In this document: positions 1 to 153 of the stretch, piece after piece
How positions within the stretch are numbered: position 1 is the first letter of the stretch
How the letters are laid out: every line of letters begins with the position of its first letter
IMG/VR virus record: IMGVR_UViG_2778261708_000011
Length of the DNA: 11,013 nucleotides
Source: a virus
Lineage: Duplodnaviria; Heunggongvirae; Uroviricota; Caudoviricetes
Strand: one strand, 5' to 3'
Translations under genes and position numbers: made by a program
Notes under the pieces: generated by a model
The model's database searches: none
What the model was told of the DNA's origin: nothing
The model's input: only the letters and a program-made list of their open reading frames with translations

Positions 1-153
1 TCGATCTTCGCTTTCTCGGATGCCTCACATTCACCATCTGCACAGGCCACCAGGTATGCGGCGTTAATCACCACCTGTGCCAGATCGCGTTTTTCAAACT
101 TTTTAATTTCCGTTGCCGCTCTGCGGGCTTTTTTTACCAAAAATACCAAACAT
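1..153 (-). CDS. TerB-like domain protein, 5' part only (continues beyond window start); reading frame disrupted at a homopolymer
   Basis: Minus-strand ATG at 153-151 preceded by AGGA 8 nt upstream. That frame stops after 16 codons (MFGIFGKKSPQSGNGN). The +1 frame is open from 212 to position 1 and reads ...KKARRAATEIKKFEKRDLAQVVINAAYLVACADGECEASEKAKI, which matches my recollection of the TerB family motif (hydrophobic helix, then ADG, then acidic EK). The two frames meet at a T7 run on the plus strand (129-135; A7 in the mRNA). Confidence 0.35.

Follow-up and report, generated by a model that had tools for sequence, protein, structure and literature searches.

The gene name tciA comes from bacteriophage P1 and reflects homology to ter genes. 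P1 TciA belongs to the same family as the protein described here (40-51% identity over residues 1-143) and also has a TciB-like partner, but P1 is a phage of another type, in which the gene lies in a different context and is accompanied by a third gene, tciC. The gene is non-essential for P1 (PMC10695390). Literature searches with tciA, TerB together with prophage, ECs2749 and WP_001303558 returned nothing on lambdoid tciA, only the P1 naming and non-essentiality. The most similar described gene is tciA of Escherichia phage JLK-2012 (O55:H7 DEC5E; AFB75444.1). Its product is 96.5% identical to the protein obtained here after removal of a single base, and it has the same Shine-Dalgarno sequence and ATG, the same GTGA overlap between tciA and tciB and the same Q-tRNA-tciAB-nanS-like esterase context. 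It differs in its tRNA set (Asn/Thr/Gly versus Ile/Arg/Arg here) and in a run of six A's, A6, through which the frame of the ATG leads without interruption into the TerB domain to give 143 aa. Intact A6 alleles are also present in other EHEC prophages. A more distant relative is TerB of the terZABCDEF tellurite-resistance operon (K. pneumoniae, 2JXU; PF05099): the TerB domain is shared, whereas the gene considered here belongs to a tciA-tciB pair in the late operon of a lambdoid prophage and not to a ter operon.

The run of A's near the start of the gene invites comparison with systems of another kind. In simple-sequence contingency loci a homopolymer near the 5′ end of the coding sequence likewise sets the frame, but the tract described here is short (7 nt), practically invariant over hundreds of genomes, and behaves as a fixed mutation, not as a switch. 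Programmed +1 frameshifting is known from prfB, and rescue by slippage on poly(A) from Thermus dnaX, IS elements and endosymbiont genes. In common with these cases, the locus has an A run at which a +1 shift or a transcript shorter by one base restores the full protein. Unlike them, it has no conserved pair of frames and no stimulators, its run is shorter, and nonsense mutations occur downstream.

We analyzed a stretch of 11,013 nt from the IMG/VR record IMGVR_UViG_2778261708_000011, referred to below as the window. Its positions 1-330 are 100% identical to the ECs_2749 locus in E. coli O157:H7 Sakai (prophage Sp14), and the same sequence occurs in at least 40 further complete genomes, including EDL933; at 99% identity or more, 326 records in total were found. 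The gene is annotated as 'TciA/TerB-like protein' in Sakai and as 'tellurite resistance TerB family protein' in EDL933 (WP_001303558.1), in both cases as a coding sequence of 429 nt (142 aa) beginning with the TTG that corresponds to window position 149. The gene, a TerB-family member of EHEC prophages that are well studied, is thus already annotated, and its lesion is of a common type. It leaves the window at the left edge, and for its 3′ remainder the identical Sp14 copy is the only source. The coordinates of the features discussed are collected in Table 1.

Table 1. Features of the tciA region and its upstream neighborhood (window coordinates).
Feature	Position	Strand	Basis or remark
tciA, 5′ part, TerB frame as annotated in RefSeq	1..149	-	start TTG 149-147; annotation, translation, Pfam TerB, PHROG 632
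TciA codon 46, GAG (Glu), intact in the window	15..17	-	TAG amber in many sister alleles
Remnant of the ancestral start: ATG 153-151, MFGIFGKKSPQSGNGN, 16 codons, TAA 105-103	103..153	-	translation
A7 homopolymer (T7 on the plus strand), a +1 insertion relative to the ancestral A6, Lys-Lys AAA AAA	129..135	-	sequence, orthologue comparison
Shine-Dalgarno AAAGGAA	161..167	-	core to ATG153 8 nt, to TTG149 12 nt; read from sequence
G6 tract in the argO-tciA spacer	236..241	-	G5 to G12 among sister prophage copies
tRNA cluster: ileZ 497-572, argN 413-489, argO 323-399	323..572	-	directly upstream of tciA
Sigma-70-like promoter site	610-582	-	promoter scan; flanks the tR′-like hairpin
tR′-like intrinsic terminator, stem CCCGC/GCGGG then T7	693..715	-	between Q and the tRNAs
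Sigma-70-like promoter site	799-771	-	promoter scan; flanks the tR′-like hairpin
Late antiterminator gene Q	783..1472	-	annotation

The assignment to the TerB family, already proposed in the first-pass annotation, was borne out by a Pfam search, in which PF05099 scored 49.7 bits with the Sp14 protein and 60.2 bits with the JLK-2012 orthologue (cut-off 24.4). PHROG 632 ('tellurite resistance') matched the repaired TciA over its full length (2e-68), and the TerB structure 2JXU aligned to residues 15-137 (E = 4e-7). The protein contains two ADGE-type acidic motifs, and its folded TerB domain begins at about residue 15-30. In the Sp14 copy the tciA stop is overlapped, through a GTG start (GTGA), by tciB, which matches DUF3927 (1.7e-16) and PHROG 1470 (TciB-like, 2e-29). 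The Sp14 copy therefore fits the TciA-TciB phage module, a TerB-like gene followed by an overlapping DUF3927/TciB-like gene; the window ends before tciB. The partner TciB is a small membrane protein, probably of two helices. Both genes fall into the PHROGs category 'moron, auxiliary metabolic gene and host takeover', and NCBIfam gave only sub-threshold matches to DjlA and YmfL. PADLOC gave a non-significant match only (0.006), and the gene is accordingly not assigned to a defense system.

On the minus strand the start region reads ...AAAGGAAcgtcacgATGTTTGGTATTTTTGGTAAAAAAAGCCCGCAGAGCGGCAACGGAAATTAAAAAG..., and two frames meet there at the A7 run. The frame opened by the ATG is short, and its first 8 codons correspond to the conserved N-terminus of the family. 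The +1 frame, entered at the TTG only 4 nt downstream of the ATG and in frame with the TerB domain, begins (M)VFLVKKARRAATEIKKFEKRDLAQVV... and meets no stop before the window edge at base 1; a longer stretch of the same translation is (M)VFLVKKARRAATEIKKFEKRDLAQVVINAAYLVACADGECEASEKAKI. No other ATG, GTG or TTG precedes this TTG in the TerB frame before a stop is reached. Removal of one A yields the continuous frame MFGIFGKKARRAATEIKKFEKRDL.... The first-pass annotation had described a well-initiated ATG at 153 followed by 16 codons, a +1 TerB frame, a meeting point at 129-135 and continuity with one base fewer, and each of these elements was recovered; the TTG start at 149 which it offered as an alternative, with a poorly spaced Shine-Dalgarno sequence, coincides exactly with the RefSeq annotation. 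A run of seven A's is as such not unusual, the window containing seven A/T runs of 7 nt or longer. What exceeds chance is its location exactly at the junction of the frames, together with the presence of A6 at this place in orthologues.

Comparison with homologues identifies the ATG as the start of the family. The JLK-2012 gene is annotated from this ATG and its product begins MFGIFGKKARRAAVEIKKFEKRDL.... Copies from Pantoea, Pseudescherichia, Franconibacter and others have ATGTT[CT]GG...GGTAAAAAAGC, with A6 and framed by the ATG, or the alternative form AAAAAGAAAACC / ...TTCAAAAAGAAAACC, which is likewise in frame with the ATG. Homologues with as little as about 50% identity still have the N-terminus MFGxFxKK; starts of the type MFG(I/F/M/L/K)... 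followed by KK are found, for example MFGKLFGKKV and MFGMFKKKT. Residues 1-143 of the repaired protein align to positions 1-143 of the PHROG 632 profile, and tblastn matches in 129 phage records, P1 tciA among them, begin mostly at query residue 1. The conservation of A6 behind the ATG and of MFGxFxKK, and the alignments from residue 1, show that the ATG is ancestral, with A7 representing a +1 insertion into the Lys-Lys codons AAA AAA. Relative to the longer frame conserved in orthologues, the frame of the A7 allele is thus disrupted. It had been considered that orthologues might start at the TTG or a GTG with no homology upstream; this did not hold, since homology extends to the first residue. 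The broader reading in the first-pass annotation, that of an ATG-initiated TerB-like frame broken by one extra homopolymer base, is supported by the A6 orthologues that start at the ATG.

To count the alleles of the run we searched 5,426 complete E. coli genomes with queries of 89-91 nt that differed only in run length. On the Sp14-type background the A7 90-mer was found exactly in 554 of 681 records, A6 in 3 and A8 in 0; on the JLK-type background A6 was found exactly in 93 records. The A7 matches include O157:H7, O111:H8, O26 and O103 strains. Among IMG/VR contigs picked by an ATG...A6 prefix, 50 have A7 and 46 have A6, and one has eight A's through a G-to-A change. An error of sequencing or assembly hiding a true A6 had been one of the options raised. 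Homopolymers are prone to such errors and one assembly of an isogenic pair does show A6, but the same 330 nt, determined independently in at least 40 complete genomes that include Sakai and EDL933, the exact A7 matches in 554 records and the 50 IMG/VR contigs leave this explanation with practically no probability, and we regard it as excluded.

The isogenic pair concerns NADC 5570/86-24: in the same prophage, genome 6565 has A6 and genome 6564 has A7, and the only differences between the two within 2.5 kb are the A run and, 110 nt upstream of it, a G12/G11 tract. These differences could reflect true slippage or errors made in assembling homopolymers. The remaining two A6 cases on the Sp14 background also carry an amber codon further downstream. 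A phase-variable tract would be expected to be polymorphic among close strains. The ratio observed was 554:3:0 for A7, A6 and A8, with one isogenic A7/A6 pair indistinguishable from assembly error, and the earlier suggestion of phase variation is accordingly unsupported. A7 is a stable inherited allele; it is neither an artefact nor visibly phase-variable.

We consider it likely that the A7 allele is a fixed frameshift in tciA that leaves the gene with the weak TTG149 start, and that this copy is a hypomorphic, decaying moron gene; of the options listed earlier, pseudogene or hypomorph fits best. The ancestral gene started at the ATG as MFGIFGKK..., its Lys-Lys written AAA AAA, before insertion of one A changed A6 to A7. 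With its optimal spacing, the pair of Shine-Dalgarno sequence and ATG would now lead most initiating ribosomes through 16 codons to a stop at TAA 105-103. The TerB frame would be entered only from TTG149, a non-ATG start 12 nt from the Shine-Dalgarno core which overlaps the ATG and would compete with it, or through rare slippage on the A run. From what is generally known of initiation, an output several-fold to more than ten-fold lower would be expected. The output of TciA would thus be strongly reduced or lost, and since the GTG of tciB overlaps the tciA stop, translation of tciB is probably coupled to that of tciA and would be expected to fall too.

It could instead be argued that the change merely shifted the start, TTG149 being sufficient for an adequately made 142-aa protein that is under selection and fully functional. 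Exactly this TTG-start coding sequence is annotated in RefSeq and Sakai, although the annotation reflects the choice of a gene caller and is no evidence of use. Sp14, identical over window 1-330, carries the frameshift as its sole lesion, with the reading frame and tciB intact, which also counts against the reading of a decaying gene. Like MFGIFGKK, the N-terminus MVFLVKK... of the TTG product is hydrophobic and then has Lys-Lys, and as the folded TerB domain begins only at about residue 15-30, a TTG-initiated protein could still work. In addition, A7 alleles that lack the amber codon are maintained in O157:H7 at two or more prophage positions. Against this stand the geometry of the site, where a TTG 12 nt from the Shine-Dalgarno core shares one 30S site with an overlapping strong ATG at the ideal 8-nt spacing, and the further changes that A7 alleles have acquired, an amber codon in most of them and an enrichment of amino-acid changes in the Sp14-type clade. 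We therefore regard a harmless shift of the start as unlikely, and favor the fixed frameshift with reduced output.

These further changes were followed in 154 tciA copies extracted with the anchor KFEKRDL; the sample is biased by the two search patterns used and by clonal EHEC genomes, and the following counts are to be read accordingly. The A7 5′ class comprises 48 copies, 30 of them with an amber codon at position 46 (E46*), and the A6 class 46 copies, 2 of them with E46*. A third class of 40 copies, all with E46*, has its 5′ end replaced by another Q module, 8 copies (one with E46*) have a 5′ end of the AAAAAGAAAA type, and 3 copies, none with E46*, have a single G deleted in TTTGGT. In the replaced class (for example positions 3812-5100 of L122, and about 40 similar IMG/VR loci) the first 15 or so codons, the Shine-Dalgarno sequence and the tRNAs are substituted by sequence that follows a different Q of 273 aa and zinc-finger type, and no tRNAs are present. 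The deletion (L123, L128 and L135) is an independent frameshift allele in which one G is missing from ATGTTTGGT and the ATG frame is broken on an A6 background. A 70-mer with the amber change (GAG to TAG) was found exactly in 402 of 635 complete-genome records; examples among the extracted copies are L013, L066, L121, L178, L179 and L184. Most tciA copies in complete E. coli genomes carry at least one disabling lesion, so that the stx-type cargo slot often holds a decaying gene.

As E46* is combined with four different kinds of 5′ end, it must either have spread by recombination over about 110 bp or have arisen more than once. Recombination is also evident from the existence of all four combinations of A6 or A7 with GAG or TAG. 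In the window allele the frameshift is the only visible lesion; the other 126 codons and tciB of the Sp14 copy are intact. Copies from other genera differ from the consensus by 56-63 synonymous and 8-10 nonsynonymous codon changes, a ratio of nonsynonymous to synonymous of about 8:60. Within the Sp14-type clade the segregating changes are 13:10, compared with 4:20 between the two main E. coli clades (Fisher p = 0.006), a comparison in which recombination blurs the clades and the sampling is clonal. Two substitutions in the window-type allele, A27V and Y37C, affect residues that are A and Y/F, respectively, throughout the family. Since A27V, together with S61Y, is also present in an A6 allele (L079), part of the amino-acid changes may be older than the insertion. 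The pattern of polymorphism and the A27V and Y37C changes would fit relaxed constraint without proving it; recombination and the clonal, pattern-biased sampling, which blur the polymorphism test, weigh against the reading of a decaying gene to that extent.

The A7 run might also be functional in itself, through programmed +1 slippage of tRNA-Lys or transcriptional slippage restoring MFGIFGKK-ARR... at a low level, or as an ON/OFF tract, possibly together with a poly-G tract upstream. On A AAA AAA A, a +1 shift would allow perfect re-pairing and yield exactly the ancestral protein, and the ATG and Shine-Dalgarno sequence are kept in all A7 copies seen. However, orthologues use a single frame and the two-frame architecture is not conserved; the RNA fold around the run is unremarkable (z = -0.16), with no stimulatory structure; there is no Shine-Dalgarno-like stimulator upstream; and the zero-frame codon that follows, AGC, is not rare and does not signal a stop. 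In E. coli, transcriptional slippage and ribosome sliding are known to become efficient at about nine or more A's, a length that the seven here do not reach. Examined for conserved frames and stimulators, the locus thus showed neither of these marks of programmed frameshifting or transcriptional slippage. A switch might find encouragement in the isogenic pair, which differs in A7 versus A6 and G11 versus G12, and in the poly-G tract, truly length-variable from G5 to G12, but the A run is essentially invariant, the single isogenic difference is confined to homopolymers and may be an assembly error, and, for recoding and switch alike, amber codons accumulate downstream. Both forms of this explanation are very improbable, and a fixed frameshift remains the preferred reading.

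The poly-G tract, which precedes the tciA ATG by about 85 nt, occurs as G5T, G6, G7, G8, G10, G11 and G12 among copies, with variants in L177, L180, L181, L010, L060, L084, L090 and L094; G11 and G12 are the forms that differ between the two isogenic 86-24 assemblies. A promoter scan placed no promoter-like site over the tract.

At least four independent kinds of lesion (A7, the single-G deletion, E46* and 5′ replacement) dominate the E. coli copies, and the poly-G tract is hypervariable. On these grounds one might speculate that in EHEC lysogens selection has repeatedly favored silencing of tciAB, or that tciAB is controlled like a switch, the A and G runs acting as contingency tracts that tune costly late-operon cargo and A7 being revertible by slippage. 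We give this idea little credence.

With respect to annotation, the RefSeq call of a TTG start masks the tciA lesion. WP_001303558.1 and WP_001303509.1, both of 142 aa with a TTG start, most likely derive from the frameshifted allele with a misassigned start, and such 142-aa proteins should not be taken to represent the native N-terminus of TciA. Gene calling at A7 copies is inconsistent, as seen in L185 (CP051816.1) versus L186-L190: some records have the 142-aa TTG protein, and in one the gene is not called. Mis-started TciA variants are also found in protein databases, including 116- and 120-aa forms and frameshifted N-termini such as MESSKRKPAERL.... The decay of tciA is relevant when function or fitness effects are inferred for prophage TerB genes; otherwise the finding is an ordinary one that matters little beyond annotation hygiene.

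The gene order around the locus is RusA, Q, ileZ-argN-argO, tciA, tciB and a SASA/NanS-like esterase. In the Stx2a phage WGPS6 a homologous trio of tRNAs is followed by stx2A and stx2B, in agreement with the earlier statement that the gene occupies the stx slot downstream of Q and the tRNAs. The tRNA at 497-572 was called tRNA-Met (CAT) by ARAGORN and is ileZ, tRNA-Ile, in RefSeq, presumably with a lysidine-modified CAT anticodon. By analogy with lambdoid late-operon architecture, the palindrome between Q and the tRNAs may act as tR′; the terminator scan listed it on the plus strand only, and its minus-strand reading was made from the sequence. No sigma-70-like site was found by the promoter scan in the argO-tciA spacer, so a promoter specific to tciA is unsupported, and transcription would most likely occur by Q-antiterminated read-through from pR′. 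An Rfam search of the window returned the tRNAs and one sok RNA only.

As a whole the window is a mosaic. Positions 1-2662 are identical to Sakai Sp14, and positions 3244-11013 are 99.87% identical to a paa-carrying prophage of O55:H7 CB9615, which places the recombinant junction near 2663-3244. The possibility that the whole window is Sakai Sp14 was rejected, identity being limited to 1-2662, and no complete E. coli genome in the collection matched the entire window above 96.6%. A search of IMG/VR for the junction pattern gave L066 as the best match, with 99.7% identity over window 1-3507; L066 has the amber codon and the window does not. A look-up by protein led only to contexts of the Sp14 type. 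The ORF at 3829-4587 (minus strand, 252 aa) is paa, encoding the AcfC-family adhesin Paa, in the closest prophage, and represents virulence-associated cargo in the early region. The sok antitoxin RNA at 3491-3640 (minus strand; Rfam full-length, 103.9 bits) adjoins a Hok/Mok-type ORF at 3338-3550 on the same strand, and together they form a type I toxin-antitoxin module of the hok/sok kind in the prophage.
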